A DNA stretch of 64,000 bases from contig SLSZ01000066.1 in assembly GCA_007130125.1 (NCBI GenBank), positions 7,578 to 71,577 of the forward strand, read 5' to 3'. Position numbers and translations under genes: made by a program. This document shows positions 872-63,600 of the stretch, piece after piece (the stretch's first letter is position 1; every line of letters starts with the position of its first letter). The notes beneath the pieces were generated by a model. The model saw nothing but the letters and a program-made list of their open reading frames with translations, was not told the DNA's origin and made no database searches. This DNA comes from Bacteroidales bacterium (GTDB taxonomy: Bacteria; Bacteroidota; Bacteroidia; Bacteroidales; UBA7960).

Positions 872-3295
872 CTAATCCTTTATAAACCTGCCAGATGATA
901 TGGTTTCATCGGTAATTATTCTTATGAAATAAATACCGGATTGCAAACCACTTACATCTAGATCAAATGATTTGCCAGTGCATTTTTCTTGTAATAAAAG
1001 TTTGCCAGTTTTAGAATAGACCTCGACAATACCCGATATTTCTTTATGTTGTACTATTGTCAATTTATTATAAGCAGGGTTTGGATACACATCTATTTCA
1101 CCCTCACTTAATGCCTGTTCTGATAAGTTCAATGCAGCTGATTTTGATGTAGATGCAACGGTAACGCTATTCTCTGCATCCCAGTAGTAACCGGATTTGG
1201 CAATATTGTCTACCGTAACGGTAAAGTCACTAGCATTTCGAATATTAGGAGTTTGAAACTCAACACTACCATTTCCGTCGGTAGTTCCGCTGTCACTACC
1301 GGAATAAGACCCTGACCAGGTAATGTCAACCGCAGCACTTGCAACTGCTTCACCCAGCGAGGAAACCTCAATATGAGCTGTAGCACTTGTGTTTGGCCCT
1401 CTGGAGGTGGTAGTAAGATTAAGGGTATTGGTCATTGGCTGATCTTCGCCACCGCCTTCATCATAAGTTACGGTGATAGAACTTGTTGCAGTGTAGCCTC
1501 CATCAACTGTTGTTACGGTAATTATTGCAGCACCTTCACCAGCGCCGGTTACAAGGCCCGTAGAGTTAACCGTTGCAACGGATGTATTGTCAGATGACCA
1601 GGTAACATCTTTGTTATCTGCATCATGAGGCTCTACATTTTCTTCAAGCTGAACTGTTCCGTTTACTTCAATTGTGGCTTCCGTAGGGCTGACGCTCACA
1701 CCAGTTACTGCTACAGGATCCGGATCTGGTTCCTCACCGCTTCCATCATCAGCCTTATAGCTGTCCAGATTATCCCAGTAATAGGTATCACCAGTAAAAG
1801 TATTAGGTGCAAAAAGAATAACCATATCAGAAATATTTGTGTGAGAAGCACTTCCGTCAGGACGATCAGCAAAATCAAACACAATCCGTTCCCACTCACC
1901 ATTCTTTGTTATCGTACCAAAATAGCGGCTATGCCTTCCGGTTGGATAGTTGGTAGCTGTAGCGTCAGGAGTTTCCAACTGGATGATTATTTCTGTGCCA
2001 ACCGGTGCAGAAGTTAGTACATCCATGTAAAATTTACGATCCCTGTTTGAATATTCTGATGCGTCGGGTATGCTTTGGAGTACATCATAAAAGATGCAAT
2101 CATATTGAGCCTCATTATCTCTTACATACTTAGCTGATTTTTCGGATGAATTTATAGTAGAGGGAGATGGATTATTAACAACAGTTAAGTCTCCGTCTGA
2201 CCCAGTAAACTCAATCAATGCAGGATCGTCAAAATTTTCAAACGAAAAGTCCAGTATGTAAAGCGGTTCTACTAAAACATCCACATTAAGGGTTTCGGTA
2301 CCATCACTGGTTGACACCTCAGCAATCACATCCCCACTTGCGGAATCAAAGTCAATAACTACGTTAGGTGTTCCTTGTCCTGACACAATTGTTGCCCCGG
2401 CAGGAACAGTCCAGTTTACATTAGTATTATTGCTAACATTCCCTATTTTATATTCAACTCCATCAGCCTTAAACTCAACTATACGATCGCCGGTAATATA
2501 AGGCTTGAATCCATCATAAACTCTCACATAGTCAACCTTCATTGTTTGTGGGAAAATATTATCATCAACCTCACCACCGAGGTTGCCTCCGACAGCAACA
2601 TTAAGTATAAAATGAAAATCCTGATCGAATGGCCAGTGATAAGGTGCTATATCTTCTTCCGTTAATGTTTGGAATAAATATCCATCTACAAACCATCTGA
2701 TAACCCCAGGTTCCCATTCAATAGCAAACTCATGCCAGTTACCGGGAAATATTCCGGTATGTTTAGTAAATGTACCACCCATATGTTGGTTGTCAGGCCA
2801 GTCATCCCCGTAATGAATATAGCCAAGTGTTTTATCAGGTTGCCATCCTATGAACTCCATGATGTCTATCTCACCACTTTTAGGCCAGCCACCATACACA
2901 TCGTCGGTTGGCATCATCCAGAATGCGGGCCATAGTCCTCCACCTTCAGGTAGATTGATCAGTGCCTCAAAACGGCCATATGTCCAATCTCCTTTATTTA
3001 TTGTACGAATCCGGGCCGATGTATAAGCATATCGTTGTACTCTTTCTTTTTTGGCAGTAATGTGTAAATGTCCATTACTTACGGTTGCATTTTCAGCCTT
3101 ATAATATTGGAGTTCATTATTACCCCACCCACAAATGCCTTCAGAACAACCATCTCCAATCTGGGGAGTCCACTTGGTATCATCCAAAGAAGTTCCCTCA
3201 AATTCATCAGCCCAAACAAGGTTGGGAGATTGGCCAGATAATGTTAAAGGAAATAAAATTCCTAAAATTAAAATTGTATAAAGCTTTTTTCTCAT
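872..3295 (-). CDS. Secreted GH16 beta-glucanase (laminarinase-like) with CBM-like region, Big_2 Ig-like domain and T9SS C-terminal sorting domain
   Basis: Signal peptide. GH16 block LVWADEFEG...GWGNNELQYY...YTSARI...GLWPAFWMMP...WPKSGEIDIMEF (catalytic ExDxxE). Big_2-like VTGVSVSP...VTWSSDNTSVATVNSTGLVTGAGEGAAIITVTT. C-terminal VYPNPAYNKLTI...GIYFIRI is typical of Por/T9SS CTDs. Confidence 0.9.
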   Translation of the reverse strand: MRKKLYTILILGILFPLTLSGQSPNLVWADEFEGTSLDDTKWTPQIGDGCSEGICGWGNNELQYYKAENATVSNGHLHITAKKERVQRYAYTSARIRTINKGDWTYGRFEALINLPEGGGLWPAFWMMPTDDVYGGWPKSGEIDIMEFIGWQPDKTLGYIHYGDDWPDNQHMGGTFTKHTGIFPGNWHEFAIEWEPGVIRWFVDGYLFQTLTEEDIAPYHWPFDQDFHFILNVAVGGNLGGEVDDNIFPQTMKVDYVRVYDGFKPYITGDRIVEFKADGVEYKIGNVSNNTNVNWTVPAGATIVSGQGTPNVVIDFDSASGDVIAEVSTSDGTETLNVDVLVEPLYILDFSFENFDDPALIEFTGSDGDLTVVNNPSPSTINSSEKSAKYVRDNEAQYDCIFYDVLQSIPDASEYSNRDRKFYMDVLTSAPVGTEIIIQLETPDATATNYPTGRHSRYFGTITKNGEWERIVFDFADRPDGSASHTNISDMVILFAPNTFTGDTYYWDNLDSYKADDGSGEEPDPDPVAVTGVSVSPTEATIEVNGTVQLEENVEPHDADNKDVTWSSDNTSVATVNSTGLVTGAGEGAAIITVTTVDGGYTATSSITVTYDEGGGEDQPMTNTLNLTTTSRGPNTSATAHIEVSSLGEAVASAAVDITWSGSYSGSDSGTTDGNGSVEFQTPNIRNASDFTVTVDNIAKSGYYWDAENSVTVASTSKSAALNLSEQALSEGEIDVYPNPAYNKLTIVQHKEISGIVEVYSKTGKLLLQEKCTGKSFDLDVSGLQSGIYFIRIITDETISSGRFIKD

Positions 3296-7752: not shown

Positions 7753-8080
7753 CGGCTAAAATCTCTCAAAAATAATATAATCTATGATATTTTGACAAAT
7801 ATATAATGGCTTTTTTAAATAATTCTTACACATTTAACCTTAACAAAACAATTATTTACACTTTTTGCAAAAATTTTCCGCCTGACGATACCTTATAGGT
7901 CATTGAGTTCATAGTGCAAACCTCATTCTTCAATTTTATTATCAAAATTCAATGTTTTTAGCTTATATTTGGAACTTAAAATTTTTTGCAGTAATTGTTC
8001 GCATTAAAATATTTTTAGGCTGCTGTTTGATTAAATAACTTTTTTACGATAAATACTTTTTAAACTATAAAGGTTTTGAT

Positions 8081-8908
8081 ATGGCATGGTTTAAAAAAGT
8101 TGACACAGAGAAAAAAACACCCAGAAAAACTTTATGGGTTAAATGTAAAAAGTGTCAATCACATATATTTGCAAAAGAATGGGCAGAAAACCTTAATGTT
8201 TGTCCCAACTGTAATTTTCATGGCAACATTTCTTCTGCCGACAGAATAAAACTGCTTTTTGACAAAAACTCATTTAGCGAATTATATTCTAATATTGAAC
8301 CGGTAGACTCTTTAAAGTTTGTTGATCTAAAAGGTCCTTATAAAGATAAATTTGAGGCCAACAAAAAGAAGTCCGGTATTTCGGAAGCAGTAATAACCGG
8401 TCATGGCAAGATCAATGGCATTCATGTTTCAGCAGCCTTAATGGATTTCCGGTATTTAGGCGGGAGTTTGGGCAGCGCTACAGGCGAAAAAATCTTACGT
8501 GCGGCTAATTACGCTTACGAAAACAATATTCCATATATAGTTTTTTCCGAATCCGGAGGTGCGCGAATGCAGGAAGGGGTCCTTTCTTTAATGCAAATGG
8601 CAAAAACCTGTAACGGAATTGCGCGGCTAAACAAAAAAAACATCCCATACATTTCTGTACTGGCTAACCCCACCACTGGTGGTGTAACCGCAAGCTATGC
8701 AATGATGGGAGATATCAACATTGCCGAGCCTTTTTCTGTTATCGGATTTGCCGGAAGAAGGGTTATTGAACAAACAATTGGTGAAAAATTACCGGACGAT
8801 TTCCAAACCGCTGAATACTTGCTTAAACATGGATTTGTGGATTCCATTGTTAACAGAAAAGACTTGAAAGATTATATCAGCAATGTGTTAAGCTTTTATA
8901 ACCGATAA
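8081..8908 (+). CDS. accD: Acetyl-CoA carboxylase carboxyltransferase beta subunit
   Basis: N-terminal Zn-ribbon CKKCQSH...CPNCNFH, then the carboxyltransferase core (GSLGSATGEKI, SGGARMQEG, PTTGGVTASYA). Confidence 0.9.
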   Translation: MAWFKKVDTEKKTPRKTLWVKCKKCQSHIFAKEWAENLNVCPNCNFHGNISSADRIKLLFDKNSFSELYSNIEPVDSLKFVDLKGPYKDKFEANKKKSGISEAVITGHGKINGIHVSAALMDFRYLGGSLGSATGEKILRAANYAYENNIPYIVFSESGGARMQEGVLSLMQMAKTCNGIARLNKKNIPYISVLANPTTGGVTASYAMMGDINIAEPFSVIGFAGRRVIEQTIGEKLPDDFQTAEYLLKHGFVDSIVNRKDLKDYISNVLSFYNR

Positions 8909-8944
8909 TTTTTTCTTATTTTTCTATTCTCAAAACACTAAAAA

Positions 8945-9826
8945 ATGAGTCACAAATCAGAAAATATTAGTAAAGTTAAAAATACCGGTGAAGCCAAAAC
9001 TAAAAAAGCCAACAACGGTCTGACTGCCTGGGAAATTGTAAAAATCAGCCGGCATTCCGGCAGGCCGGTTTTTCAAGACTATCTTAAACTGATCTTTGAA
9101 AATTTTATACCGCTGCATGGCGACAGGTATTTCGCGGATGATCCGGCAATAGTGGGTGGTTTTGCAGAATTAGAAGGAAACAAAATAATGCTTGTAGGGC
9201 ATTATAAAGGAAAAAATACTGAGGAAAATATTGAAAGAAACTTTGGAATGGCTAAACCCGAAGGATACAGAAAAGCTCTCAGGTTGATGAGACTGGCTGA
9301 AAGGTTCAACATTCCAATTGTAACGATAATTGACACACCGGGCGCTTTCCCCGGAATGGAAGCCGAAGAAAGAGGGCAGGCAGAATCAATTGCAAAAAAC
9401 ATAACAGAAATGGCCAAAATTGAAGTGCCTATAATATCTGTTGTTATTGGTGAAGGTGGTAGTGGTGGAGCTTTGGGTATTGGCGTTGGAGATAAAATAT
9501 TAATGCTTTCCAGGGCTATTTATTCTGTAATTTCACCGGAAGGATGTGCTTCAATTTTGTGGAGGGATGCCTCCTATGCACCTGACGCGGCAAAAGCCCT
9601 AAACCTGACAGCTGACGCACTGCTTAAACTTGATGTTATCGACGAAATTATTGAAGAGCCTGCTGAAGGCGCCCATACAGGCGTCCACAAAACTGCCGAA
9701 AATGTTAAAAATTCAATTATTAAGAACTTGAACCTTTTAGGCAACTTAGATGTTGAAGAATTGCTGAAAAACAGAAGCAGTAAATATTCAAACATGGGTA
9801 AGTATAATGATATTAATAAAGGCTAA
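8945..9826 (+). CDS. accA: Acetyl-CoA carboxylase carboxyltransferase alpha subunit
   Basis: LTAWEIVKISRHSGRP, GMAKPEGYRKALRLMRLAERFNIPIVTIIDTPGAFPG..AEERGQAE, GEGGSGGALGIGVGD. 36 bp after accD, same strand. Confidence 0.9.
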   Translation: MSHKSENISKVKNTGEAKTKKANNGLTAWEIVKISRHSGRPVFQDYLKLIFENFIPLHGDRYFADDPAIVGGFAELEGNKIMLVGHYKGKNTEENIERNFGMAKPEGYRKALRLMRLAERFNIPIVTIIDTPGAFPGMEAEERGQAESIAKNITEMAKIEVPIISVVIGEGGSGGALGIGVGDKILMLSRAIYSVISPEGCASILWRDASYAPDAAKALNLTADALLKLDVIDEIIEEPAEGAHTGVHKTAENVKNSIIKNLNLLGNLDVEELLKNRSSKYSNMGKYNDINKG

Positions 9827-9907
9827 CGAACACAAAAACCCCTTCAACCGTTAGTTACAAACCATAACAAGCGATTAACCATCAATGTTTTACGAAATTA
9901 TATAACG

Positions 9908-11842
9908 ATGACTAAAAAGAAAGAAATTTTAAGAATCACTGATACAACCCTTAGGGACGGCCATCAGTCGCTTTGGGCTACAAGAATGAGAACAGCCGAT
10001 ATACTAGACATCATTGAAACCATTGATAGTGTTGGCTACTATTCCTTAGAGGTGTGGGGTGGCGCCACATTTGATGTATGCTTGCGATATCTATATGAAG
10101 ACCCGTGGGAAAGGTTGCGGCTTATAAAATCAAAAGCAAAAAAAACCCCCTTGCAGATGTTGCTGAGAGGTCAAAACATCGTTGGGTACAAAAATTACCC
10201 CGACGACCTGGTTGAAAGGTTTATAATGGCTGCTCATGAAAATGGTATAGATATCTTCAGGGTTTTTGATGCTTTGAATGATTCCCGTAATCTTGAAGCT
10301 GCAATCAAGGCTATCAAAAAAAGCGGCGCCCATGCCCAGGGGTCATTATCTTATACCATAAGCCCCGTCCATACCATTGAGAAATATGTTGAAGATGCTA
10401 AAAAGCAGGTTAATATGGGAATTGACTCTTTATGCATAAAAGATATGGCGGGATTATTGTCGCCAACCATGTCAAAAGACCTTGTTGCTGCTTTAAAAAA
10501 AGAGCTGCAAATACCAATACAAATTCACTGTCATGCAACCAGCGGTATGGCAAACTCAGCATACTATGATGGCGTCAAAGCAGGGGCCGGAGCTGTCGAT
10601 TGTGCTATATCAGCCTTAGGAGGTTATTCTTCACAACCACCTGTAGAGACAATCATTGCAATGTTCAGTGAAACCGAGCATGATGTTGATCTTGACATCG
10701 AAGCTATACGGAAGGTAAACAAGTATTTTTACGATCTTTCTCCGAAAAGATGCAAGCCAAGAGGCTTTGAACCTGTAATTGATGCTGAGATATTAGTTCA
10801 CCAGATCCCCGGTGGTATGATATCAAACTTCCGCTCACAGCTTGAACAGCAGGGAGCCATAGAAAAATTGCACGAAGCACTTGAAGAGGTTGCTAAAGTC
10901 AGGAAAGACCTGGGATATCCGCCACTTGTTACACCTACCAGCCAGATAGTTGGAACACAAGCTGTGATGAATGTGCTTACCGGTGAAAGATATAAAATGG
11001 TTCCGCAAGAAGTTAAAAACTATGTTAAGGGCATGTATGGAAGGCCTCCGGCACCCATAGACCCGAAGTTGGTTAAAAAAATACTCGGAAAAGAAAAACC
11101 TTTTCACCACAGGCCGGCAGACGACCTGGACCCGGTTTTACCCAATGCAACAAAAAATATATCCAACCCCGAACTTATCAAAAATGAAGAGGATATATTA
11201 TCTTACTGCCTGTTCCCTGATGTGGCGATGGAGTTTTTCAAGTGGAGAGCATTGCCGGAAGAAAACAGACCAAAAACTCCTGTTGAGATAGAGAGTGAAG
11301 AGTTTTGCAAGGAGCAACAAGACGCCGCAAGCCCTTCTCAGAAAGAGGAAATAGAGCCATTACTGAATGAAGAAGATTATTCAGGCATCAATGCCATTAT
11401 TGACAAAGCTTCAAAAATGAAGCTTAATGAAATTGTCATTAAAAAGGGAGATTTTAACCTGGCATTACGCACCAGCAATGGCAACTCTAATCCAAATTCA
11501 GGCATTGAACCCTTCACTGAACAAGCAACCCAAAAAACAGAAGATGTAGCAATAAAAGAAAAAGAAAAAAAATCTGAGGAAAAAGGTGATGCCATTGAAT
11601 ATACTGACACTATTGAAGCAATAATGGCCGGCACTTTTTACCGTGCTGCAGCTGAAAACAAGCCACCTTTTGTTGTTGAAGGCGCTGTAGTCAATCCCGG
11701 AGACACAATTTGCATTCTTGAAGCGATGAAGCTCTTTAATGAAATACAATCGCCGGTTAAGTGCAAAATTCTTAAAATATTGGTTGATAACGGAACAAAG
11801 GTCTCTAAAGGCCAGCCATTGATTGCAATACAAAAATTGTAA
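9908..11842 (+). CDS. 5S-type (oxaloacetate decarboxylase alpha / pyruvate carboxylase B-like) carboxyltransferase fused to a C-terminal AccB-type biotin carboxyl carrier domain
   Basis: N-terminus ITDTTLRDGHQSLWATRM...LLRGQN.VGY...IHCHATSGMA (HMGL-like TIM barrel plus PYC_OADA region). Low-complexity linker from about residue 460 to 560. C-terminus AGTFYRAAAENKPPFVVEGAVVNPGDTICILEAMKLFNEIQSP with the biotinyl-Lys EAMK motif. Confidence 0.85.
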   Translation: MTKKKEILRITDTTLRDGHQSLWATRMRTADILDIIETIDSVGYYSLEVWGGATFDVCLRYLYEDPWERLRLIKSKAKKTPLQMLLRGQNIVGYKNYPDDLVERFIMAAHENGIDIFRVFDALNDSRNLEAAIKAIKKSGAHAQGSLSYTISPVHTIEKYVEDAKKQVNMGIDSLCIKDMAGLLSPTMSKDLVAALKKELQIPIQIHCHATSGMANSAYYDGVKAGAGAVDCAISALGGYSSQPPVETIIAMFSETEHDVDLDIEAIRKVNKYFYDLSPKRCKPRGFEPVIDAEILVHQIPGGMISNFRSQLEQQGAIEKLHEALEEVAKVRKDLGYPPLVTPTSQIVGTQAVMNVLTGERYKMVPQEVKNYVKGMYGRPPAPIDPKLVKKILGKEKPFHHRPADDLDPVLPNATKNISNPELIKNEEDILSYCLFPDVAMEFFKWRALPEENRPKTPVEIESEEFCKEQQDAASPSQKEEIEPLLNEEDYSGINAIIDKASKMKLNEIVIKKGDFNLALRTSNGNSNPNSGIEPFTEQATQKTEDVAIKEKEKKSEEKGDAIEYTDTIEAIMAGTFYRAAAENKPPFVVEGAVVNPGDTICILEAMKLFNEIQSPVKCKILKILVDNGTKVSKGQPLIAIQKL

Positions 11843-11845
11843 CCA

Positions 11846-12772
11846 TCATAAAAACAATGATGCCGAAGGCTTTAAGTGGCCAGGAGTACCCTTTATGGCT
11901 TCATCAATCTGTTTAAGCATACGAGGGTTGTCTTTTGAAAGAGTACCCTCCAGTATCAGGTTATTTGAAACATGATTGCTGCGATAAATAACATTCTCAA
12001 CGTTAAGGTTCTCAATAAAGATTCTTAATTCTTTATAAAGTTCAACAATTGTCTGCTGGACATATTCACCCTTAAACCGCTCTTGAAAATGTTCATGCCC
12101 ATAAGGCATACTTAGAGTAAGTGTAGAAAGGAACTTAGGATTAACCTGATTAATGATTTCGGCTGATTTAATGGCATGCTGTTCGCTGTAGTTTTTCCCT
12201 CCCAAGCCGTTGATTATCATAATAGATGTGTCAATGCCGGCATTATGGGCTTTTTTAATCCCTTCAACTGTAGAGTTAAACGTTTCTCCTTTATTTACAA
12301 GTCTCAAAAGCTCATCATCACCACTCTCAATTCCAATATATAGTAGCTTTAAACCAAGGGCCCGCAATTCTTTCAGCTCATCATCAGACTTTGAAAGAAC
12401 ATCTTTTGGCATGGCATATGAAGATATCCGCTGTAGCCTGCCAAACCTGTTTCGTATCTCTTTCAATACCGGTATAAGCCTCTTTGCCGATAACACAAAA
12501 GCATCACCGTCGGCCAGAAAGATTTTCTTTGAAACTCCGCGATAAAAATCTGCTAATATCTTTATTTCAGGTTCTAGCTCTTCAAAGCTTTTTATTTTGA
12601 ATTTTTTGGAAGCGTACATCTCACAAAAAGCACACTTATTCCATGAACAGCCGGTGGTAACCTGCAAAATTGCAGAACGTGCCTCCCCCGGCGGGCGAAA
12701 TAATGGCTCATCATATTTTAACGGCTGTAAAAACATATAATCGTAGTTTTTGCAAAAATAATTAATTAACAA
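11846..12772 (-). CDS. Radical SAM domain protein (Elp3-like cluster spacing CX4CX2C)
   Basis: TTGCSWNKCAFCEMY cluster motif, followed by FLADGDAF and LYIGIESGDDELL (TIM-barrel radical SAM core). An alternative start, MFLQPL, lies 12 codons in. Confidence 0.75.
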   Translation of the reverse strand: MLINYFCKNYDYMFLQPLKYDEPLFRPPGEARSAILQVTTGCSWNKCAFCEMYASKKFKIKSFEELEPEIKILADFYRGVSKKIFLADGDAFVLSAKRLIPVLKEIRNRFGRLQRISSYAMPKDVLSKSDDELKELRALGLKLLYIGIESGDDELLRLVNKGETFNSTVEGIKKAHNAGIDTSIMIINGLGGKNYSEQHAIKSAEIINQVNPKFLSTLTLSMPYGHEHFQERFKGEYVQQTIVELYKELRIFIENLNVENVIYRSNHVSNNLILEGTLSKDNPRMLKQIDEAIKGTPGHLKPSASLFL

Positions 12773-12983: not shown

Positions 12984-14849
12984 ATGGATAAAAAAGAAAA
13001 AGAAAAGCTTTTCAGTGATTTCCCACCGGTATCTACCAATGAATGGGAGGAAAAGATCCGTGAAGATCTTAAGGGTGCGGATTATGAGAAAAAACTCATA
13101 TGGAACACAATTGAAGGAATTAGAGTAAGGCCATATTACAGGTTGGAAGACAATGAAAAGCTTGATCAAACGCAAGCCCTGCCAGGTGAGTTCCCTTTTA
13201 CGAGGGGTAAGTTTTTTGAGAGTAATGATTGGATGATCCGCCAGGACATTGAAGAAAAAGAGGCCGGTAATGCTAATAAAGAAGCTATCAATGCTATTGA
13301 AAAGGGCGCAGAAAGCATTGGTTTTAATGCATTAAGCATAATAGACAATGCATTACTAGATAGAATGCTTCATGGCATTAACATGAAAAAAACGCCGGTC
13401 AGCTTTATTCATGCAATAAACTACAAAACCCTGCTTGGTTTATTTCTGGATTATATCTCCGAAAAAAAATTCAACCCGGAAGAAATAAAAGGATCGTTTA
13501 ATTTTGACCCGCTAGGGTATTTCTTGCTTTATGGCAGCTTTTACAGCACACCGGAAGAAAATTTCCGTGATGCAGCCGACTTAATAAAAATAGGGAAAAA
13601 CCACCTTCCTCTTTACAAGCTCTTAAATATCAGCGGCCAACATTATCATGAAGCCGGTGCTTCCATAGTGCAGGAAGTTGCTTTTGCCCTGGCACAGGGA
13701 AATGAATATCTTGCACAGTTGACCGAGCTGGATATCACTTTGGAAGATATTACTCCACGCATGCAGTTTACATTTTCCACAGGCTCCAGTTACTTTATGG
13801 AGATAGCAAAAATAAGAGCATTCAGAATGCTTTGGGCCAATATTGTTAAACAATACAAACCCGAATCTGAAGAATATACAAAAACTTATATCCATGCTTT
13901 AACATCTGTCTGGAACAAAACTATTTACGATCATTATGTCAACATACTGCGTTCTTCCACAGAAATAATGTCAGCTGCTATTGGTGGTGTTGACGGCATG
14001 TCTGTTAGCCCTTTTGATATTACATTCAAAAAGCCTGGCGATTTCTCTAAACGTATAGCCCGAAATCAGCAAATTATACTAAAGCATGAGTCTTATTTCA
14101 ATAAGGTGGCTGATCCGGGCGCCGGCTCATATTATATTGAGCAGCTTACCAATGCGATTGCCTCACAAGCATGGGAACTTTTTAAAAACATCGAAAGTAA
14201 AGGCGGATTCATTAAAGTAGTGGAAGATGGCTTTATTAATGAAGAGATTGAAAAAACATGTCAAAAGAGAGACATGAACATCGCAATGCGCAAGCAGGTT
14301 TTTGTTGGCACAAACCAATACCCCAACCTGCAGGAAAAAATGCTTGACAAAATGCAACCCACAGCAAAACTTTCAGATATTGGTGGTTTAAAGCCTTATA
14401 GGGGTGCTAAAGCTTTCGAGGCCATAAGGTTGGCTACTGAAAATCACCGTCAAAAAGGCTTTAGCATACCGAAAGTTTTCTTGTTTACCTATGGAAATCT
14501 CGCTATGCGAAAAGCCAGGGCAGGGTTTACCACCAACTTCTTCGGTTGTGCAGGGTACGAGATTGTAGAAAATCCCGGCTTTAAAACTATTGAACAGGGA
14601 GTTGAGGCAGCCCTGGAATCCAAAGCCGAAATTGTTGTGCTATGTAGCTCTGATGATGAATATGTTGAGCTGGCAGAAGCCGCTAAGCTTATTAAGGAAA
14701 AAGCTGAAAACACTATTGTTATAGTTGCAGGATATCCTAAGAATATTTTGCAACAACTTCAGGACGCCGGTGTTGATGACTTCATTCATATCAAGTCCAA
14801 CGTCCTGGAAGTACTTTCAAAATATAACGAAAAATTACAAATAAATTAA
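12984..14849 (+). CDS. mutA: Methylmalonyl-CoA mutase small (beta) subunit
   Basis: 621 aa, same fold pattern as mutB but lacks the DxHxxG B12 ligand motif. N-terminus FPPVSTNEWEEKIREDLKGADYEKKLIWNTIEGIRVRPYY is typical of MutA. It lies directly upstream of mutB. Confidence 0.85.
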   Translation: MDKKEKEKLFSDFPPVSTNEWEEKIREDLKGADYEKKLIWNTIEGIRVRPYYRLEDNEKLDQTQALPGEFPFTRGKFFESNDWMIRQDIEEKEAGNANKEAINAIEKGAESIGFNALSIIDNALLDRMLHGINMKKTPVSFIHAINYKTLLGLFLDYISEKKFNPEEIKGSFNFDPLGYFLLYGSFYSTPEENFRDAADLIKIGKNHLPLYKLLNISGQHYHEAGASIVQEVAFALAQGNEYLAQLTELDITLEDITPRMQFTFSTGSSYFMEIAKIRAFRMLWANIVKQYKPESEEYTKTYIHALTSVWNKTIYDHYVNILRSSTEIMSAAIGGVDGMSVSPFDITFKKPGDFSKRIARNQQIILKHESYFNKVADPGAGSYYIEQLTNAIASQAWELFKNIESKGGFIKVVEDGFINEEIEKTCQKRDMNIAMRKQVFVGTNQYPNLQEKMLDKMQPTAKLSDIGGLKPYRGAKAFEAIRLATENHRQKGFSIPKVFLFTYGNLAMRKARAGFTTNFFGCAGYEIVENPGFKTIEQGVEAALESKAEIVVLCSSDDEYVELAEAAKLIKEKAENTIVIVAGYPKNILQQLQDAGVDDFIHIKSNVLEVLSKYNEKLQIN

Positions 14850-14925: not shown

Positions 14926-17079
14926 ATGAGACCCGATTTCAGCAACATATCATATCAATCAAAAAACGACTTAACGCTTGACTACAAAAAGTGGGAAGAA
15001 GAAAAGGGTATTAAAAAAGACTGGCTTACACCTGAGAAGATTCCTGTTAAGCCGGTATATCACCCTGATGACCTTTTGGAAATGGAGCACCTGGACTATG
15101 CCGCCGGATTGCCACCGTTTCTCAGAGGCCCATACAGTACTATGTATGCTATGAAGCCATGGACTATCAGACAGTACGCAGGCTTTTCAACAGCCGAAGA
15201 ATCAAATGCTTTTTATAAGAGAAATCTTGCTGCAGGGCAAAGAGGGCTGTCGGTAGCTTTCGACCTGGCAACACACCGGGGTTATGACTCCGACCACGAG
15301 AGGGTTGTGGGTGATGTCGGTAAAGCAGGAGTTGCTGTTGATTCAATACTTGACATGAAAATATTGTTTGATGATATACCGCTTGATAAAATGTCAGTAT
15401 CGATGACAATGAACGGCGCAGTGTTGCCAATCATGGCCTTTTACATCGTTGCAGCTGAGGAGCAGGGTGTGCCTATGGAAAAACTAACCGGCACAATCCA
15501 GAACGATATACTTAAAGAGTTCATGGTACGCAACACCTACATCTATCCTCCGCAGCCGTCGATGAAGATCATTGCCGACATTTTTGAATTTACATCCCAA
15601 AATATGCCAAAATATAACTCAATCAGCATCAGCGGTTACCACATGCAGGAAGCCGGCGCTACAGCAGACATTGAGCTGGCATATACTCTTGCCGACGGAC
15701 TGGAATATTTGCGAACGGGACTAGATGCCGGAATGGACATTGATTCTTTTGCACCAAGATTGTCTTTCTTTTGGGCCATGGGAATGAACCATTTCATGGA
15801 AATAGCAAAGATGCGTGCTGCCAGGATGCTTTGGGCAAAAATTGTAAAACAGTTCAACCCTAAGAATCCAAAGTCAATGGCGTTGCGTACACACTCGCAA
15901 ACATCGGGATGGAGCCTTACCGAGCAAGACCCATACAACAATATCACACGCACATGCTGTGAAGCTATGGCTGCCGCACTTGGACATACCCAGTCACTTC
16001 ACACAAATGCTCTGGATGAAGCTATAGCTCTTCCAACAGACTTTTCTGCAAGAATAGCACGTAACACTCAAATTTATCTGCAGGAAGAAACAAACATCTG
16101 TAAAGCTGTAGACCCATGGGCCGGATCATATTATGTTGAAACCCTGACACACGAAATAGCTCACAGTGCCTGGGAACACATTCAGGAAATTGAAAAGCTC
16201 GGAGGAATGGCTAAAGCACTCGAAACAGGTGTGCCAAAAATGCGTATTGAAGAAGCGGCAGCTAGAAAACAAGCTCGGATAGATAGCGGAAAAGACTTTA
16301 TCGTTGGTATTAATAAATATCGCCTCGACAAAGAAGAACCGCTTGAAATTCTCGACATTGACAACACTGCCGTACGCGAGTCGCAGATAAAAAGAATAGA
16401 AAAGCTTAAAGCCGAACGCAATAATGATGAAGTGCAAAAAGCTTTAGACAATATAACCAAAGCGTGCGAAACAGGCGAAGGCAACCTTCTCGAACTTTCG
16501 GTAGAAGCTGCACGCAAACGTGCTACCCTGGGTGAAATATCTCAGGCTTGTGAAAAAGTCTTTGGCCGTTATCAGGCCGTTACACGTTCAATATCTGGAG
16601 TATATTCTATGGAAATCGAAAATAATGAAAACTTTGCTAAAGCCCGCAGATTGGCCGATGAATTTGAAAAACTGGAAGGGCGCAGGCCACGAATAATGAT
16701 TGCCAAAATGGGACAAGACGGACACGATCGGGGCGCCAAAGTGGTTGCCACAGCCTATGCCGATATGGGCTTTGATGTTGACATCGGACCACTGTTCCAA
16801 ACACCGGCAGAAGCAGCCAAACAAGCTGTTGAAAACGACGTGCATATTGTCGGCGTTTCAAGCCTCGCTGCCGGACATAAAACTCTTGCTCCACAAATCA
16901 TTGAGGAACTAAAAAAACTTGGTCGCGATGACATTATGGTAATCGTAGGTGGAGTAATCCCGTCACAAGATTACCAGCACCTTTACGATGCAGGTGTAGT
17001 AGGAGTGTTCGGACCGGGAACCGTTATTTCGGATGCGGCAATCAGAATACTGAATATTTTGTTGGAAATGAGAAAATAG
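14926..17079 (+). CDS. mutB: Methylmalonyl-CoA mutase large (alpha) subunit, B12-dependent
   Basis: [12 protein letters not shown]...[16 protein letters not shown]...[17 protein letters not shown]-terminal cobalamin domain with [10 protein letters not shown] (DxHxxG). Confidence 0.95.
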
Positions 17080-21263: not shown

Positions 21264-22376
21264 ATGAAAAACAGAAATATGAAAAAAAGAGTGTTAGTTG
21301 CAACAGGAGGAGGTGACTGCCCGGGTTTAAATGCCGTAATCAGGGCGATTGTAAATCGAGCCGGAAAAGAAAAAGACTGGGAGGTAATTGGAAGCATAAA
21401 TGCTTTTGACGGCATTTTGAATGAGCCGCAGGAAATAGTTGTCTTAGATGACAAGAAAGTTGCCGGTATTCATATCCGTGGAGGTACAATTATAGGTACT
21501 ACAAACAAGGGCGGCCCCTTTGCATGGCCTATTAAGGATAATGAGGGAAACTGGACTTCCGCAGATCGTTCTGATGAAATGATACGCCGTTTACAATATT
21601 TGGGTGTTGAAGCAGTAATAAACATCGGTGGTGATGGTTCGCAAAAGATATCGAAAATGTTCCATGAAAAGGGAGCTAATTTTATTGGTGTTCCAAAAAC
21701 TATCGACAACGACCTTTCTGCGACCGATTTCACTTTCGGTTTTCAAACTGCAGTACAGGAAGCAACTACAGCTGTTGATAAGTTAGTAACCACAGCCGCA
21801 AGTCACAATCGTGTATTTGTCCTTGAAGTTATGGGCAGATATGCCGGATGGATAGCTCTTAATGCTGCTATCGCAGGTGGTGCTGATGTAGCCCTAATAC
21901 CTGAAATACCTTATGACCTGAATCGTGTGGTTGATAAAATAGATAGCAGGTTTGACGGAGACCGCGGGTTTGCTATAATTGTCATTGCTGAGGGAGCTAA
22001 ACCGGTTAATGGTGATATCCACTTCAAAGAAAGTAATGAGGTAGGATATAATAAAGTACGCCTCGGCGGTGTTGCCACAAAACTCATTAATGAACTGAAA
22101 GAAATCGGCGTTAAAACAGATATGCGTGAAACAGTGTTGGGACACCTGCAAAGAGGAGGCACTCCGACAGCATACGACCGGATACTCGCTACACAGTTTG
22201 GAGTGAAAGCTTTTGAAATGGTTTTGGAAAAGAAATTTGGCCAAATGGTTGCATACCACCACCCGAATATTGTTTCAGTACCACTTGAAGAAGCGATAAG
22301 CCAATACAACTTTGTAAACCCCGGTTCCGACCTGGTTAAAGCAGCAAGGGGTGTGGGGATCTGCCTGGGTGATTAG
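21264..22376 (+). CDS. pfkA: 6-phosphofructokinase (ATP- or PPi-dependent)
   Basis: VATGGGDCPGLNAVIRA, IGGDGS, GVPKTIDNDL, EVMGRYAGWIA, LGHLQRGG. An alternative start is at 21279. Confidence 0.9.
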   Translation: MKNRNMKKRVLVATGGGDCPGLNAVIRAIVNRAGKEKDWEVIGSINAFDGILNEPQEIVVLDDKKVAGIHIRGGTIIGTTNKGGPFAWPIKDNEGNWTSADRSDEMIRRLQYLGVEAVINIGGDGSQKISKMFHEKGANFIGVPKTIDNDLSATDFTFGFQTAVQEATTAVDKLVTTAASHNRVFVLEVMGRYAGWIALNAAIAGGADVALIPEIPYDLNRVVDKIDSRFDGDRGFAIIVIAEGAKPVNGDIHFKESNEVGYNKVRLGGVATKLINELKEIGVKTDMRETVLGHLQRGGTPTAYDRILATQFGVKAFEMVLEKKFGQMVAYHHPNIVSVPLEEAISQYNFVNPGSDLVKAARGVGICLGD

Positions 22377-55324: not shown

Positions 55325-56782
55325 ATGAAAAAAAACAATCTTTCCCTGGAAAATTTAGAGGCAATGCTGCCTGACGATCTTACTCAACAACAAAAAGCTA
55401 AAGCTAAAACCCTGTTTTACAAAGAGCTGGCGTTAAAAGCCCACAAGTTTTATAACGGTAAAATGCAAACTTTACCCAAAGCTCCTGTTTTAGGGTTTAA
55501 TTGGTTTAATGCATGGTATACACCCGGGGTTTCAAATATTTCAACTACAATAAGAGACAACAATGACGCTTCTTTTGAATTATCCAACCGTGGCAACCTG
55601 GTAGCTGTTGTTAGTGACTCAACAAGAGTATTGGGCGATGGAGACTGCACTCCCCCCGGAGGTTTGGGTGTTATGGAAGGCAAAGCCTTTCTTATGAAAT
55701 ACCTTGGAGGTTGCGATGGAATTGCTGTTTGTGTGGACAGCCGTAACGAAAAAGGAGAAAATGACCCTGATAAGATTATTGATTTTGTTAAAATGTGCCA
55801 ATACAGTTATGGAGCTATAAATCTTGAAGACATATCACAACCAAATTGTTATAAAGTTCTTGATGTGCTAAGGGAAGAGTGTCAAATCCCAGTATGGCAC
55901 GATGATGCCCAAGGAACTGCCTGTGTAGCTCTCGCAGGCCTGATAAATGCTCTAAAGCTGGTTGATAAAAAAATAGAAGATGCAAAGATCGTTTTTTATG
56001 GAGCAGGTGCTTCAAATGCTACTATTGCCCGAATCGTTACTACTTATGGTGCAGACCCTGCAAAAATCATAATGTTCGACTCTAAAGGTTCTCTTCATTC
56101 CGGCCGCTCCGACATTGAAAAAGACAAAAGATTTTACCGGAAGTGGGAACTTTGCCAGGTTACAAATCCAAACAAAATAGAAACAATGGAAGAAGCCATG
56201 AAAGGAGCGGATGCGCTAATCTCAATGTCACGACCAGGACCGGATGTAATTAAACCGGAATGGATAGAAGTTATGGCTGACAAATCTATTGTCTTTGTTT
56301 GTGCAAACCCTGTTCCCGAAATATATCCATACGCAGCTAAAGAAGCCGGTGCACATATAGTAGCAACAGGACGCGGAGACTTCCCAAACCAGGTAAACAA
56401 CTCTGTTGGATTCCCCGGCATATTAAAAGGAGCCTTAATGGCAAGAGCTAGCAGTATTACCGACAACATGGCAATAGCAGCTGCTAAATCTATCGCACGA
56501 TTTTCTGAAAAAAGAGGAATTAATACAGACAACATAATTGCTAAAATGGATGAATCTGAAGTATTCCCTTTTGAAGCTGCAGACGTTGCTATGCAAGCAA
56601 TTGAAGATGGAGTGGCAAGAAAAAAACTAACATGGCAGGAAGCATACGATTGGGCCACCGCTGACATAAATAACGCCAGGGAATCAACCCACAAACTGTT
56701 TGAAGCAGGCCTTATCGAAAACCCTCCTGAAGATATGATAAAAAATGCTTTGGACAATGCAATTAAAAAAGTTAAAAGCTAA
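55325..56782 (+). CDS. NAD(P)-dependent malic enzyme (short form, no PTA domain)
   Basis: YTPGV, VAVVSDSTRVLGDGD....GGLGVMEGKA.L.K.LGG.D, NLEDISQPNC, WHDDAQGTA.V.LAGL.NAL, FYGAGASN. 485 aa. Confidence 0.9.
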   Translation: MKKNNLSLENLEAMLPDDLTQQQKAKAKTLFYKELALKAHKFYNGKMQTLPKAPVLGFNWFNAWYTPGVSNISTTIRDNNDASFELSNRGNLVAVVSDSTRVLGDGDCTPPGGLGVMEGKAFLMKYLGGCDGIAVCVDSRNEKGENDPDKIIDFVKMCQYSYGAINLEDISQPNCYKVLDVLREECQIPVWHDDAQGTACVALAGLINALKLVDKKIEDAKIVFYGAGASNATIARIVTTYGADPAKIIMFDSKGSLHSGRSDIEKDKRFYRKWELCQVTNPNKIETMEEAMKGADALISMSRPGPDVIKPEWIEVMADKSIVFVCANPVPEIYPYAAKEAGAHIVATGRGDFPNQVNNSVGFPGILKGALMARASSITDNMAIAAAKSIARFSEKRGINTDNIIAKMDESEVFPFEAADVAMQAIEDGVARKKLTWQEAYDWATADINNARESTHKLFEAGLIENPPEDMIKNALDNAIKKVKS

Positions 56783-57664: not shown

Positions 57665-60600
57665 GTGCATATATCGAAACACGTTAGTATTCAGTTTGCT
57701 TTAATATTTCTTGCTTCTGTAAAGCTTTTGCAGGCAGCTCCAGGTAATTTTGAAAACCATGGCTACTGGAAAAACCCGGAAGAAAGTTCAAGCTATGCAA
57801 TTTCTGAATCTAACGATCCTGATACAGATAACCCTGAAGAAAATGAGCCCACCACTGAAAGCGACCAACAGGAGCCAATATTACCATCATATGTTCTTAA
57901 TGACCCTCCACATGAAGGAGTAAGCATGGGTGATCCTCCCAACATAAAAACTGAATATATCTACGATCCGGAGGCAAATCAATATCTCAAGGTGCGAAAA
58001 GTGGGAGATATGATTATAGGCCGTCCTATTGTAATGAGTTTTGACGAATATCTTGATTATGATATGGATAAAGCTTTGCGTGATTATTGGTTTGAAAAAT
58101 CCCGTCCACAAGACTTTGAAAGACGCGACGGTATAATACCTGAAATATACGTCAGCAGTGAATTGTTTGAACGAATTTTTGGCGGCAGCACAATAGATAT
58201 CAGGCCAACAGGCTCGGCAGAACTTATTTTTGGCGTGCTTTCAAACAAAAGGGAAGACCCGTTCCTGGATGAAAGACGAAGAAGACAAACAAACTTTGAC
58301 TTCCAGCAAAAAATACAGGTGAGCGTTGACGCACAAGTTGGTGAAAAAATAAGGATTAGTAGTAATTATAATACTGAAGCAACATTTGATTTTGAAAATC
58401 AGCTAAAAGTTGAATACCAGGGTACGGAAGATGACATATTGCAACTTGTGGAAGCCGGCGACGTTACTTTGCCTTTACCGGGTACTCTTATAACAGGAAA
58501 CCAGGGATTGTTTGGCATAAAAACACAATGGAGATTTGGAAACACAACGATAACCAGTGTGTTTTCTCAACAAAAGACCGAAACACAAACCATTGAAGTA
58601 ACGGGCGGTGCACAGGTCAGTGAATTTGAAATACGTGCCGATGAATATGAAAGCAATCGCCACTTCTTTATTGGTCATCATTTCAGGGACAGATACGAAG
58701 ATGCTCTTGAAACTTTACCGGTTGTTAGCTCAAACATTAACATAACCCGTGTCGAGGTATGGGTAACCAATATTGGCGCTGCTACCGAAGATAACCGTAA
58801 CATTGTCGCATTTGCTGACCTTGGTGAAAATGACCCATATAATCAAACTATTGGGGGAATACCTGGACATCCGCCATCTAATGAAGCCAACGAACTATAT
58901 GAAATGGTAGAAGATAGCCCGATCAGAGATATATCACAGGTTAGCAGCTATCTTGCTCAGCATGGCTTCTCTGCAGGAATTGATTATGAAAATATTGAAA
59001 TGGCTCGTAGGCTGAGACCCAACGAATATACCATAAACACAAACCTCGGATTTATATCATTAAACCAATCTCTCAACCCGGACCAGGTACTTGCGGTTGC
59101 TTATGAATATGAAATAATTGGTGATGACAGAACATATAAGGTTGGAGAATTCTCGAACGATATTTCCTCTCCCAATTCATTAATCGTTAAAATGCTCAAA
59201 AGCACCACTGTGAACACAAGGATCCCGATGTGGGATCTAATGATGAAAAACATCTACAATATTGGTGCTTACCAGGTTAACAGGCAGGACTTCAGGCTTA
59301 ACATATTTTACGACAGTGAAGAGCTGGGTGTTCCAATAGGTTTCCTGAATGAAGGGCCGGTTGAAGGTGAGCCGCTTATCAGGGTAATGGGCCTGGACAG
59401 GCTTAACACTCATCTTGACCCCAACCCCGATGGAGTATTTGATTTTGTTGATAATGCAGCTACAAGAGGGGGTACAATAGAATCAGCAACAGGGAGAATT
59501 TATTTCCCTGTATTAGAACCCTTTGGGTCTCATTTAAGAAAAGTTTTAGAAAATGAAGAGCTCGGAGACAAATACGCTTTCGACTCGCTCTATACAACCA
59601 CAAAGCACCGGGCCCAACAGTTCCCAGAAAAAAACAGGTTTTTCCTTGAAGGAACATATAAATCTGAAGCCGGATCAGAAATTTTTCTCAACGCAATGAA
59701 TATACCTCCGGGCTCTGTTATCGTCACAGCAGGAGGAACCCCGCTTACAGAAAACGTTGACTATACAGTTGATTATTCTCTTGGCAGGGTGCAAATCATT
59801 AATGAAGGCATTCTTAATTCAGGAGCACCAATACGGATATCTCTTGAAAGTAGTGACATGTTCAGCCTGCAAACCAAAACCTTGCTCGGAGCACATGTTA
59901 ACCACAGGATCAGTGATGATTTTAACATCGGTGGTACCATAATGCGTTTATCAGAGCGCCCAATGACACAAAAAGTATCTTTTGGTGATGAGCCTATTGC
60001 AAACACTATCTGGGGACTTAACACAACATACACTACCGAATCACTTTTTATTACACGAGCCCTTGACCTGCTTCCTTTTTACAGTTCAAACACACCTTCA
60101 AGGATTACTTTTGACGGTGAGTTTGCTCACCTCATACCGGGGCACTCTCGTCATATAGGCAGTGCCGGTACTGCATACATCGATGATTTTGAAGGTAGCA
60201 AATCTTTGATCTGTTTGAAAAATGTTCATTCGTGGCACATAGCATCCACACCACAAGGTCAAACAGCGCCTCACATGTTTCCGGAAGGAGCTCCCGGAAC
60301 AGAGCTTGCTTTCCGTTATAATGTCGCTAAAATGGCATGGTATATCATTGATCCACTGTTTGTAAGAAATGACAACCTTACTCCGGCACATATACGTAAT
60401 GATGTTGAGCAACAATCAAGCCACTTTGTAAGGGAGGTTCTGGAAACTGAAATATGGCCAAACAAAGAAAGCCCTACAGGATTACCTGCACCAATACCTG
60501 TTCTAAACATGGCATACTACCCTGATGAGAGAGGGCCATACAATTATGATACAGAACCATCACCTTATAGCCACGGCACGGATGAAGACGGAAGGCTTAA

Positions 60601-63600
60601 CAACCCTGAAACTCGCTGGGGTGGAATAATGCGCGGACTGCACACTACTGACTTCGAGGCTGCCAACATAGAATATATAGAGTTTTGGATGATGGACCCA
60701 TTTGTATATGATGAAGATCACTCTGGAGGAGACCTGTATTTCAACCTGGGAGATGTGTCGGAAGATGTGTTGCGCGACGGAAGGAAAAGTTTTGAAAACG
60801 GGTTGCCTATTGATGAAAATGCAATTAATGTAGATACAACCATATGGGGCAGAGTCCCCACTCAACAAGATATTACAGGAGCTTTTGACAACGACCCGCA
60901 ATCAAGGCAGTACCAGGATGTCGGCCTTGACGGATTAAGCACTGAAGATGAAAGAACTTTTTTCTCCGAATTCCTTGACGCAATTGCCGCAATTCATGGT
61001 GCTAATAGTGTTGCATATGAAAAAGCTTTCGAAGACCCATCTGCAGATAATTATCAATACTATAGAGGCACCGAACACGACCAAAATCAAACATCAATAC
61101 TTGACAGATACAAAAATTATAATGGACTGGAAGGTAACAGCCCAACAGCAGAGCAAAGCCCCGAACCATACCCTACAGCGGCAACCAACCTGCCCAACAC
61201 TGAAGATATCAACCGTGACGGCACACTAAACGAATCCGAAAGATACTTTCAATACCGCGTAAGCCTGAGACCTGAAGATATGGTGGTGGGGGATAACTAC
61301 ATTACAGATATCCGGGAAGCAACAGTGAGGTTAAAAAACGGTGAAACGGAAAGTATTCGCTGGTATCAGTTTAAAATTCCTTTACGCGACCCTGACAGAC
61401 AAGCTGTAAACAATATACAGGACTTCAACTCTATAAGATTCATGAGAATGTTTTTTAAAGGATTTGAAGAAGAAATTATTTGCCGTTTCGCCACACTATC
61501 ACTTATCAGGGGAGACTGGAGAACATATGACAGATCTTTAACTGAAGCTGGAGAATATCTTCCTGTCGATGATGAACAAACCGCTTTTGAAACATTTACA
61601 GTAAACATAGAAGAAAACGCTCACCGCCAACCAATACCTTATGTGCTGCCACCCGGCATAGAAAGAGAAGTAGACCTTGGTACTACAGCACTGCAGCAAA
61701 GAAACGAGCAATCACTTGCAATGCGGGTCAGGGATTTGAAAGACGGTGATGCACGTGCAGTATATAAAAACACAAGCCTTGATATGCGCCAATACCGCAG
61801 AGTGAGGATGTTTGCTCACACCGAATCAATTGGAGAAGATGACGACCTTAAAGATGGTGAACTGACAGTTTTTATTCGACTTGGAACGGACTTTACAGGA
61901 AACTATTATGAGTATGAAGTCCCTATGAAAGTCACCAGATGGGGTTCTTTTAATCCCAGGGAAGTGTGGCCGGAGGAAAATGAGTTTGACATCTACCTTG
62001 AAAAGCTACAAGAATTAAAGTTGCAAAGAAACACTTTGTCAAGACAAGCAAACTCAGGAGTATCCGTCAACAGGCCATTTATGATGGAAGATGGTGATAA
62101 TAAAATGACTATCATTGGAACCCCAACTTTGAGTGATGTTAAAGTAATAATGATCGGCATCCGCAACCCTAAAAAAACAATAAACAATTCCGACAATGAT
62201 GGTATGCCAAAATCAGCAGAGATTTGGGTCAACGAATTAAGATTATATGATTTTGAAGACCAGGGAGGCTGGGCAGCATCAGGCAGGCTAAATGCGCAAC
62301 TTGCTGACCTTGGTAATCTTACTTTGGCCGGAATGATAAGCACTCCGGGTTATGGATCTATTGAAAAAAGAGTAAGTGAGAGACAAATTGAGCAGTTCAC
62401 CTCTTATGATATTGCTACTAACCTGGAGCTGGGAAAATTTTTCCCTGAAGATTTCGGGTTAAGAATCCCTATGCACTTTAGTTATTCCGAAGCTTTAAGC
62501 AATCCACAGTATAATCCTCTGAACCCCGATGTTTTGTTTGAAGACGATCTTGACTCTTATGAAACCAAAGCCGAAAGAGATTCAATAAAAAGAATTGCCC
62601 AGGACTTGACTCGTCGCAAAAGTATTAATTTCACAAACGTATCAAAGAGCAGAACTCAAAGAGGATCTACGCCTCGGCTGTGGGACCTTGAAAACTTTAG
62701 TGTCAGCTATGCATATACAGAAGTATACTCAAGGAACATAGACATAGAGTACGACAAGAGGCAAAACTGGAGAGGAAGTCTTGGGTACAATTTCACTACA
62801 ACACCTGACAACGTTACACCATTCTCTAATTTAGAGTTTTTAAGCCATGATGCATTCAGCCTCATACGGGATTTTAATTTTTATTATAAGCCCCGAATGC
62901 TTTCTTTCCGAACTGATGTTGAGCGTGGCTATAATGAAATTTTGATGAGAAACAAAAGTGAAGGCTTAATCATTCTTGAACCGAACTACGTAAAAACTTT
63001 TAACTGGGACCGCCTCTATGACATGCGCTGGGATTTGACAAGAAACCTGAAGTTAGAGTATTCTGCAATAAACAACTCACGCATAGACGAGCCTCCGGGG
63101 CGTATTGACAGAGGTGACGATGAGGGGTATCAGGAATATCGCGATGAAGTTATGCAAAGCATAAAAGGCTTTGGAAGGACAACATTCTTCAACCAAAGGG
63201 TTAACCTAACATACAATATACCTATAAACAAATTGCCTTTGCTCGATTTTGTCAACGCCAATGCCGGCTATACAGCTAACTATGACTGGGCAGCATCACC
63301 ACTTGCGGTGCAGGAAGATATTGGAAATACCATTGAAAATGCCAATACAAAAAGTCTGAATATAAATGCAAACTTCGTCAACCTTTACAATAAAATTGAC
63401 TTTTTACGCAGGGTAAACCAGGGTGGACAATCGCGAGGCCAGCAAAGACAACCGCAAAGACAGCCACAAAGAGAAAGAGGCCAGCTAAGGGGAGAAAACC
63501 TTGAAAGGGAAGGTATAGATGATGATGACGACCAACCAAACTATTTGTTAAAAATAGCGGAAGGTGTAACAAGAGTTATGATGGGCCTCAGAACTGCATC

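Follow-up and report, generated by a model that had tools for sequence, protein, structure and literature searches.

We put at about 0.6 the probability that a 644-amino acid (aa) protein encoded in a 64,000-nt stretch of Bacteroidales DNA (contig SLSZ01000066.1, assembly GCA_007130125.1; hereafter the window, whose positions serve as coordinates) is the organism's acetyl-CoA carboxylase (ACC) carrier with a carboxyltransferase (CT) grafted on its N-terminus, co-expressed with AccD and AccA. The same figure applies to the proposal that an AccC encoded elsewhere charges this single fused carrier, which would then serve both AccDA and the CT tethered to it. The domain anatomy of the protein, the AccB identity of its tail, the accD-accA-fusion module in which its gene lies and an arrangement in Firmicutes where the fusion occupies the accB slot are direct observations. 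The features of the three-gene unit are listed below.

8081-8908 (+): accD, ACC carboxyltransferase beta subunit, 275 aa; TIGR00515 362 bits, cutoff 317; Carboxyl_trans and Zn_ribbon_ACC domains
8081-8212 (+): AccD N-terminal peptide (MAWF...) and Cys4 zinc ribbon, which in E. coli contacts biotin carboxylase (BC) and BCCP, the biotin carboxyl carrier protein
8945-9826 (+): accA, carboxyltransferase alpha subunit, 293 aa; NF004344 429 bits, cutoff 357
9908-11842 (+): fusion gene, 644 aa; 5S/PycB/OadA-type CT joined to a complete AccB
9929-11314 (+): pyruvate/oxaloacetate CT domain, residues 8-469; TIM barrel and PYC_OADA helical domain
11315-11371 (+): linker 1, residues 470-488, acidic and of low complexity; low model confidence (pLDDT) over 474-484
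11372-11473 (+): AccB N-terminal segment, residues 489-522, EDYSGINAIIDKASKMKLNEIVIKKGDFNLALRT; homologous to E. coli AccB residues 1-34
11474-11605 (+): linker 2, residues 523-566, of low complexity, on which the biotinyl domain swings; pLDDT <50
11606-11839 (+): thumb-type biotinyl domain, residues 567-644; GTFY at 575-578, thumb at about 579-587
11729-11731 (+): codon of the biotinyl-lysine, K608, in EAMK

An earlier note, made from the letters of this DNA, had described three co-directional open reading frames (ORFs) with short gaps and no terminator between them. The coordinates proved exact: all three lie on the + strand, the gaps are 36 bp between accD and accA (8909-8944) and 81 bp between accA and the fusion gene (9827-9907), and a scan of the + strand gave no terminator-like site inside the unit. 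The statement that no BC is encoded in the 64 kb was upheld by tblastn and by a profile hidden Markov model (HMM) search at E<=1, and none was found in the extensions of the contig past the window ends.

The fusion is, as that note proposed, an HMGL-like/5S-type CT followed by a biotinyl domain. The motifs RDGHQS, HCHATSG and GTFY...EAMKLFNEI are all present, and the domain calls are HMGL-like, PYC_OADA and Biotin_lipoyl. Assignment of the carrier to the AccB type, rather than to the 1.3S/OadA type, was also borne out. The biotinyl domain aligns throughout its length, thumb included, with E. coli BCCP (1BDO/1A6X, 7e-13), whereas the 1.3S (1DCZ) and MMD-gamma carriers match the tail on the core only, at about 1e-6. 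The thumb is reported as a hallmark of the BCCP of heteromeric ACC; the carriers of 1.3S, MMD-gamma and human ACC2 have none (PMC11926652). The spacing from Gly to Lys in the domain is 33 residues, the same as in E. coli AccB, and E605-A606-M607-K608 is invariant in 39 homologues. The likeness extends beyond the biotinyl domain. Residues 440-644 align with residues 25-175 of the full-length E. coli BCCP chain 4HR7_B at 1e-12, and the best curated model for the tail is TIGR00531 (BCCP), aligned over positions 4-155 of 156, with a score of 94 bits that lies under the equivalog cutoff of 115.2. The same model was the best, end to end, for every tail tested. E. coli AccA, AccB, AccC and AccD sequences served only as guides; the conclusions rest on the PDB-chain alignments and the curated HMMs. 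As judged by these, the tail is a complete AccB, comprising the N-terminal segment, a linker and the thumb-bearing biotinyl domain.

An AlphaFold2 model built from a 39-sequence alignment (mean pLDDT 68) gave high confidence to the biotinyl domain and to the TIM barrel and predicted a helix at 488-503, matching the helix of the AccB N-terminal segment. Residues 505-564, the two strands of the segment included, were modelled with low confidence, so that only the helix of the segment is supported. The single low-complexity linker of the earlier note is right for residues 470-488 and 523-566, but wrong for residues 489-522, which are the AccB segment itself.

The catalytic motifs of the CT half are intact (RDGHQS at 16-21, KDMAG at 178-182, HCHATSG at 207-213). 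Its matches in the PDB are the beta subunit of two-subunit pyruvate carboxylase (PC), 5KS8_C, with 464 bits, OadA (2NX9) with 461 bits and transcarboxylase 5S (1RQB) with 422 bits. The domain is nearly equidistant from the three, and its physiological direction therefore cannot be assigned by sequence alone. Among the curated models the whole fusion reaches 801 bits, end to end, with NF006761 ('pyruvate carboxylase subunit B', cutoff 402); the equivalog scores for OadA (TIGR01108, 707 bits, cutoff 756.5) and transcarboxylase 5S (NF008984, 522 bits, cutoff 827) fall under their cutoffs.

What is missing between the two halves is also informative. In canonical bacterial two-subunit PC the beta subunit docks BC by means of a conserved BT-like domain with an HGE motif, which clamps the C-terminal helix of PycA (PMC5059739). 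In the fusion no such domain could be detected: 5KS8_C matches residues 440-644 only at the biotinyl core (chain residues 565-615, E = 0.029), and the HGE motif is absent between the CT and the biotinyl domain. With no BT-like docking domain, any contact with BC must use the mode of AccB in ACC and not that of PycA/PycB.

Homologues of about 640 aa number in the hundreds in metagenome-assembled genomes (MAGs) of Bacteroidales and other Bacteroidota, and the sources name them PycB or OadA. The gene neighbourhood was examined at 80 genome and 80 metagenome loci. The accD-accA-fusion order, with the AccB N-terminal segment in the fusion, was found in 63 modules, from Bacteroidota, Spirochaetota and several lineages of higher GC content, so that synteny, which the earlier note had suggested checking across Bacteroidota, is conserved over several phyla. 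Within the modules the genes are closely spaced, with median gaps of about 41 and 63 bp, and the flanks are variable, with no neighbouring gene common to more than 14 of 53 loci. Because the order is the same while the flanks are not conserved, the three genes behave as a module complete in itself. Chance is far from able to account for such an arrangement, and the functional link of AccD and AccA to the fused carrier is strongly supported.

AccD and AccA are, by the curated models, equivalog-level ACC carboxyltransferase subunits; AccA passes TIGR00513 (389 bits, cutoff 319) in addition to NF004344. In the electron cryo-microscopy study of E. coli ACC, BC and BCCP are contacted by AccD residues 2-23 together with the Zn domain, and Trp-3 of AccD plugs a pocket in the interface of the BC dimer (PMC11160672). 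Among the modules Trp-3 is invariant (62 of 62), although AccD identity falls to about 55%, and the Zn ribbon is likewise retained. The invariance of this residue would give indirect support to charging of the carrier by AccC and donation to AccDA.

The Firmicute loci place the fusion beside a BC. In all 12 of them the fusion is followed by genes for AccC, Asp23 (YqhY/RfaA), NusB and FolD, examples being Desulforadius tongensis, Ammonifex thiophilus and Desulfothermobacter acidiphilus. We take accB-accC followed by asp23-nusB-folD to be the canonical Firmicute accB-accC neighbourhood, as in Bacillus. The Firmicute fusions are 47-51% identical to the window fusion over the full length. Their BC, of 448 aa, is the AccC equivalog (TIGR00514 747-760 bits, cutoff 626.5) and lies under the cutoff of the 471-position model. 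Since AccC adjoins the fusions, the family works with the housekeeping AccC in the Firmicute clade. By sequence, the Firmicute tails are unambiguous AccB, and a segment HMM detected the AccB N-terminal segment in all accDA-linked and accC-linked fusions.

The Firmicute genes also retain a trace of how the fusion may have arisen. In 12 of 12 (L062-L073) the first codon of the AccB segment is an in-frame start codon, ATG at 7 loci and GTG at 5, and a Shine-Dalgarno sequence (AAGGAGG; AAGGGAGG in L071) is embedded 6-10 nt upstream of that codon. The segment begins around residue 468 in L068, where the fusion ORF starts at 10001, and at residue 476 in L063. The window fusion has GAA at the corresponding position and no in-frame Met nearby. 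The embedded Shine-Dalgarno sequence and start codon mean that the ancestral accB ribosome-binding site and start survive inside the Firmicute fusions, which suggests a read-through origin of the fusion and possibly also internal initiation in Firmicutes, giving free AccB alongside the fusion protein. These copies are a clean snapshot of a multi-domain biotin enzyme arising by read-through fusion.

From these observations we infer a BC partner in the window organism, sharing of the carrier and a direction of flux. An AccC-type BC encoded elsewhere would carboxylate the biotin on K608 with ATP and bicarbonate. The biotinyl domain would then swing on its tether of about 45 residues behind the AccB N-terminal anchoring segment and deliver carboxybiotin either to AccDA, turning acetyl-CoA into malonyl-CoA, or to the CT of the same polypeptide, converting pyruvate to oxaloacetate. 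A single carrier and a single BC would thus serve ACC and pyruvate carboxylase alike. In E. coli the N-terminal segment of AccB is predicted to oligomerise and to anchor BCCP in the holoenzyme (PMC11160672). The architecture of the holoenzyme probably differs from the E. coli tube, because a CT of 470 residues on every AccB N-terminus is hard to fit with the clustering in the lumen of that tube. One fused carrier shared by ACC and pyruvate carboxylase, with accC elsewhere, had been the earlier note's alternative; adjacency to accC in Firmicutes and the invariance of Trp-3 make it the better-supported reading.

Several points weigh against it. The operon never includes accC in the 63 modules, and no BC was found within 10 kb of any of these accDA-linked modules (about 2 Mb of flanking DNA). 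In many anaerobic Bacteroidales oxaloacetate comes from phosphoenolpyruvate (PEP) carboxykinase, and the need for a pyruvate carboxylase is therefore not obvious. The accDA-linked tails score 94-120 bits with TIGR00531 (99-120 for those other than the window tail), on either side of the 115.2 cutoff, compared to 166-182 for the accC-linked Firmicute tails, and so are more diverged from canonical BCCP. Finally, AccA of the window and of all aligned modules is without the N-terminal two-helix element, of about 55 residues, of E. coli AccA. A short, basic and poorly conserved stretch replaces it (window 8945-9100, and the same in aligned modules), and the window AccA aligns to NF004344 only from model position 34. 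In E. coli these helices stack the ACC rings into tubes and touch the C-terminus of BC (PMC11160672). Their loss, together with the divergence of the tails, could reflect relaxed constraints from BC.

Two of these points are less telling than they appear. NCBIfam holds a family of short AccA proteins (NF008971, a 256-position model) with which the loss of the helices is compatible, and that loss is therefore a weak argument against a BC partner; it also fits an altered holoenzyme architecture. The absence of a nearby accC carries little weight, because about 60 related fusions have no BC gene anywhere near them.

Both CT half-reactions are reversible and independent of ATP, as is established for OadA, transcarboxylase 5S and AccDA. 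With one carrier reaching both CTs, oxaloacetate:acetyl-CoA transcarboxylation is therefore possible in principle, and transfer from oxaloacetate to malonyl-CoA would in principle be an inherent side capacity of a shared carrier. The dominant flux in vivo cannot be told from sequence. That the module acts in vivo as such a transcarboxylase, either with no BC or as the dominant flux despite one, and with oxaloacetate from PEP carboxykinase, is possible but on balance unlikely.

The fusion might instead be the beta subunit of an ordinary two-subunit PC, pairing only with a BC of its own; a separate, stand-alone accB would serve ACC, and adjacency to accD-accA would be meaningless. The end-to-end match to NF006761 and the names PycB or OadA in the public sources agree with this, as does the large class of related thumb-type fusions that stand alone among unrelated genes. 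It is nevertheless unlikely. The BT-like domain by which PC beta docks its BC is missing, the tail has an AccB N-terminal segment with no known role in PycB, the synteny with accDA extends over 63 loci with variable flanks, and in Firmicutes the fusion fills the accB slot with the ribosome-binding site and start codon of the ancestral accB embedded in it.

The headline of the earlier note was a split transcarboxylase independent of BC. In such an enzyme CO2 from oxaloacetate would pass to biotin, then to AccDA and into malonyl-CoA at no cost in ATP, and the genomes may lack BC. There are attractions in this scheme. OadA runs from oxaloacetate to biotin and AccDA from biotin to acetyl-CoA, as established for homologues; the operon consists of exactly the three parts required and never accC, over 63 loci, in parallel with the logic of 12S/5S/1.3S; the CT is as close to OadA and 5S as to PC beta; and canonical ACC features have been lost in part from AccA and from the accDA-linked tails. 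On balance the evidence points away from the scheme, and we regard a transcarboxylase wholly free of BC as rather unlikely. Trp-3 of AccD, the residue of the BC pocket in E. coli (PMC11160672), is invariant, the same fusion family adjoins the housekeeping accC in Firmicutes, and the carrier keeps the thumb and N-terminal segment of the ACC type, unlike the 1.3S design. Distance from a BC gene is normal for the family, with about 60 related fusions encoded amid unrelated genes. To our knowledge there is no precedent for loss of BC in free-living bacteria that retain AccDA.

A methylmalonyl-CoA:pyruvate transcarboxylase of the succinate-propionate pathway, coupled to the mutA and mutB genes 1.1 kb downstream, is very improbable and largely refuted by the comparative data: mutAB is adjacent in just two of the 63 modules, that of the window and that of L026, its closest relative, a convergent radical-SAM gene lies between, and AccD and AccA pass their ACC cutoffs but reach only 78 and 47 bits with the methylmalonyl-CoA CT model TIGR01117 (cutoff 999). 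Equally remote is the alpha subunit of the membrane-bound, Na+-pumping oxaloacetate decarboxylase, OadA; the name on many homologues in JGI, the 707 bits with TIGR01108 and the 461 bits with 2NX9 speak for it, but the TIGR01108 score is below the cutoff, no membrane-subunit gene (oadB/oadG) is a conserved neighbour in the surveyed loci, and the AccB N-terminal segment stands where OadA would have its OadG-association domain.

Against this background, the shared-carrier system can be compared with those already known. It resembles heteromeric ACC of the E. coli type in its equivalog AccD and AccA, in the full AccB layout with EAMK and in the Zn ribbon and Trp-3 peptide of AccD. In E. coli, however, AccB is a free protein of about 156 aa, whereas here it is the C-terminal quarter of a 644-aa chain with a second CT, its gene is operonic with accD-accA instead of accC, AccA is without the N-terminal helices, and the tail has 94 bits against the BCCP cutoff of 115.2. 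The two-subunit PC of Methylobacillus flagellatus (PycA/PycB, PDB 5KS8; PMC5059739) provides the closest solved relative of the CT and has the same order of CT then carrier, but the fusion has neither BT-like domain nor HGE motif and its carrier is of the AccB rather than the PycB type. The BC adjacent to the fusion in Firmicutes is the 448-aa AccC equivalog and not a PycA of about 471 aa, and no dedicated PycA of about 471 aa was found near any accDA-linked module.

Propionibacterium transcarboxylase (12S/5S/1.3S; 1RQB, 1DCZ) also has one carrier between a CoA-ester CT and a 5S-type CT, and the accD-accA-fusion operon holds just the corresponding parts, with a CT that scores 422 bits to 5S. 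The CoA-side CT here is split into AccD and AccA, unlike the single-chain, PccB-like 12S hexamer; the 1.3S carrier is free and thumbless, whereas the one described here is thumbed and covalently fused to the 5S-type domain; and independence from BC is disfavoured here by indirect evidence. In actinobacterial acyl-CoA carboxylases several CT beta subunits draw on one BC-BCCP alpha subunit (AccA3). The likeness lies in one carrier and one BC common to different CTs, but those CTs are all of the crotonase fold and the carrier is fused to BC, whereas here a TIM-barrel CT is fused to the carrier. The alpha subunit of the OadA Na+ pump (2NX9) shares the type of CT (461 bits) and the order of CT then carrier, and differs in that the fusion is below the OadA equivalog cutoff, has no oadB/oadG nearby and has the AccB N-terminal segment in place of the OadG-association domain.

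All the parts are members of known families, and it is the wiring which is new: an ACC carrier covalently joined to an unrelated CT and kept with AccDA across phyla. No accD-accA-(CT::AccB) operon, fusion of AccB with a 5S-type CT, sharing of a carrier between ACC and a pyruvate CT, or natural oxaloacetate:acetyl-CoA transcarboxylase was found described in the literature, the coverage of which was incomplete, making this weak evidence of novelty. Were the carrier shared, lipid synthesis would be physically coupled, at its committed step, to the pyruvate/oxaloacetate node. The two would compete for carboxybiotin and could exchange CO2 directly, which would bear on how anaerobes widespread in sediments and soda lakes are regulated and on their energetics. 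If the transcarboxylase were true, malonyl-CoA would be made at no cost in ATP, an unrecognised start of fatty-acid synthesis in anaerobic Bacteroidota and other phyla; the finding would gain greatly in significance should the genomes prove to be without BC, or should malonyl-CoA turn out to be made with no ATP. For annotation, the names PycB and OadA lead reconstructions of Bacteroidales MAGs to report accB as missing and ACC as incomplete, and these may also predict a pyruvate carboxylase or a sodium pump that, as such, is perhaps not there. For engineering, the fusion offers a natural carrier, compatible with AccDA and already tethered to a 5S-type CT, as a scaffold on which to build an ATP-free supply of malonyl-CoA.

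The survey also brought out other arrangements of the same CT family. A third context class consists of fusions with a thumb-type carrier but no AccB N-terminal segment, at about 60 loci of higher GC content and among unrelated housekeeping genes. In loci of this class (L096-L165, eg L106, L155 and L165) the biotinyl motif is EAMKLFNP/Q, and neither accDA nor BC lies close by. Among PycB-like proteins, carriers of the thumb type appear to be much commoner than in the textbook picture. In Anaerolineae/Caldilineae (L074, L080, L081) a CT-only gene of about 510 aa precedes a separate carrier gene of about 158 aa with the motif EAMKMENEL, the two overlapping by 4 nt in L080 and L081 and by about 20 nt in L074. 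As read from the sequences, this is an unfused, non-AccB state of the same CT family. The N-terminal half of that carrier is odd and repetitive (…TVEGTAYEIEIE…VTVNGRPF…). Thermotogota, which like these belong to the more distant relatives, have CT-only genes. One locus, L163 (495-4783), has about 1 kb inserted between accA and a fusion gene of 562 aa without the N-terminal segment, and may be an intermediate or decaying form. The commonest neighbour of the modules, at 14 of 53 loci, is a minus-strand ORF of about 175 aa directly downstream of the fusion, eg L027:4141-4668.

The immediate surroundings of the unit in the window are as follows.

ends 7752: histidine-kinase ORF, divergent from accD
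7753-8080 (+): AT-rich intergenic region of 328 bp, 5' of accD; presumed promoter region of the three-gene unit, the sigma-70 scan not covering Bacteroidota promoters
11846-12772 (minus): radical-SAM gene, 308 aa, convergent on the fusion, its stop 3 nt from the fusion stop
12984-14849: mutA, starting 1.14 kb downstream of the fusion
14926-17079: mutB

The earlier note had placed the unit next to methylmalonyl-CoA mutase. The position of mutA is as described; the functional link is not supported, with adjacency in two loci only and an opposite-strand gene between, and mutAB is a transcription unit separate from accD-accA-fusion. No conserved neighbour emerged as a pathway clue among the loci compared. 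The intervening radical-SAM protein gives weak matches to B12-rSAM methyltransferase families and has no B12 domain; about 8-10 close relatives also have its gene immediately downstream of the fusion. Elsewhere in the window a malic enzyme gene (55325-56782, +) encodes another enzyme of the pyruvate/C4 node, relevant to the oxaloacetate and pyruvate pools here, and a phosphofructokinase gene lies at 21264-22376 (+). A GH16 glycoside hydrolase with a Por secretion tail is encoded at 875-3295 (-), and a giant SprA-type gene (~57665-64000, +) runs past the 3' end of the window, its product being 2429 aa in the source contig. The SprA-type gene and the Por tail, in keeping with an origin in Bacteroidota, are hallmarks of type IX secretion.

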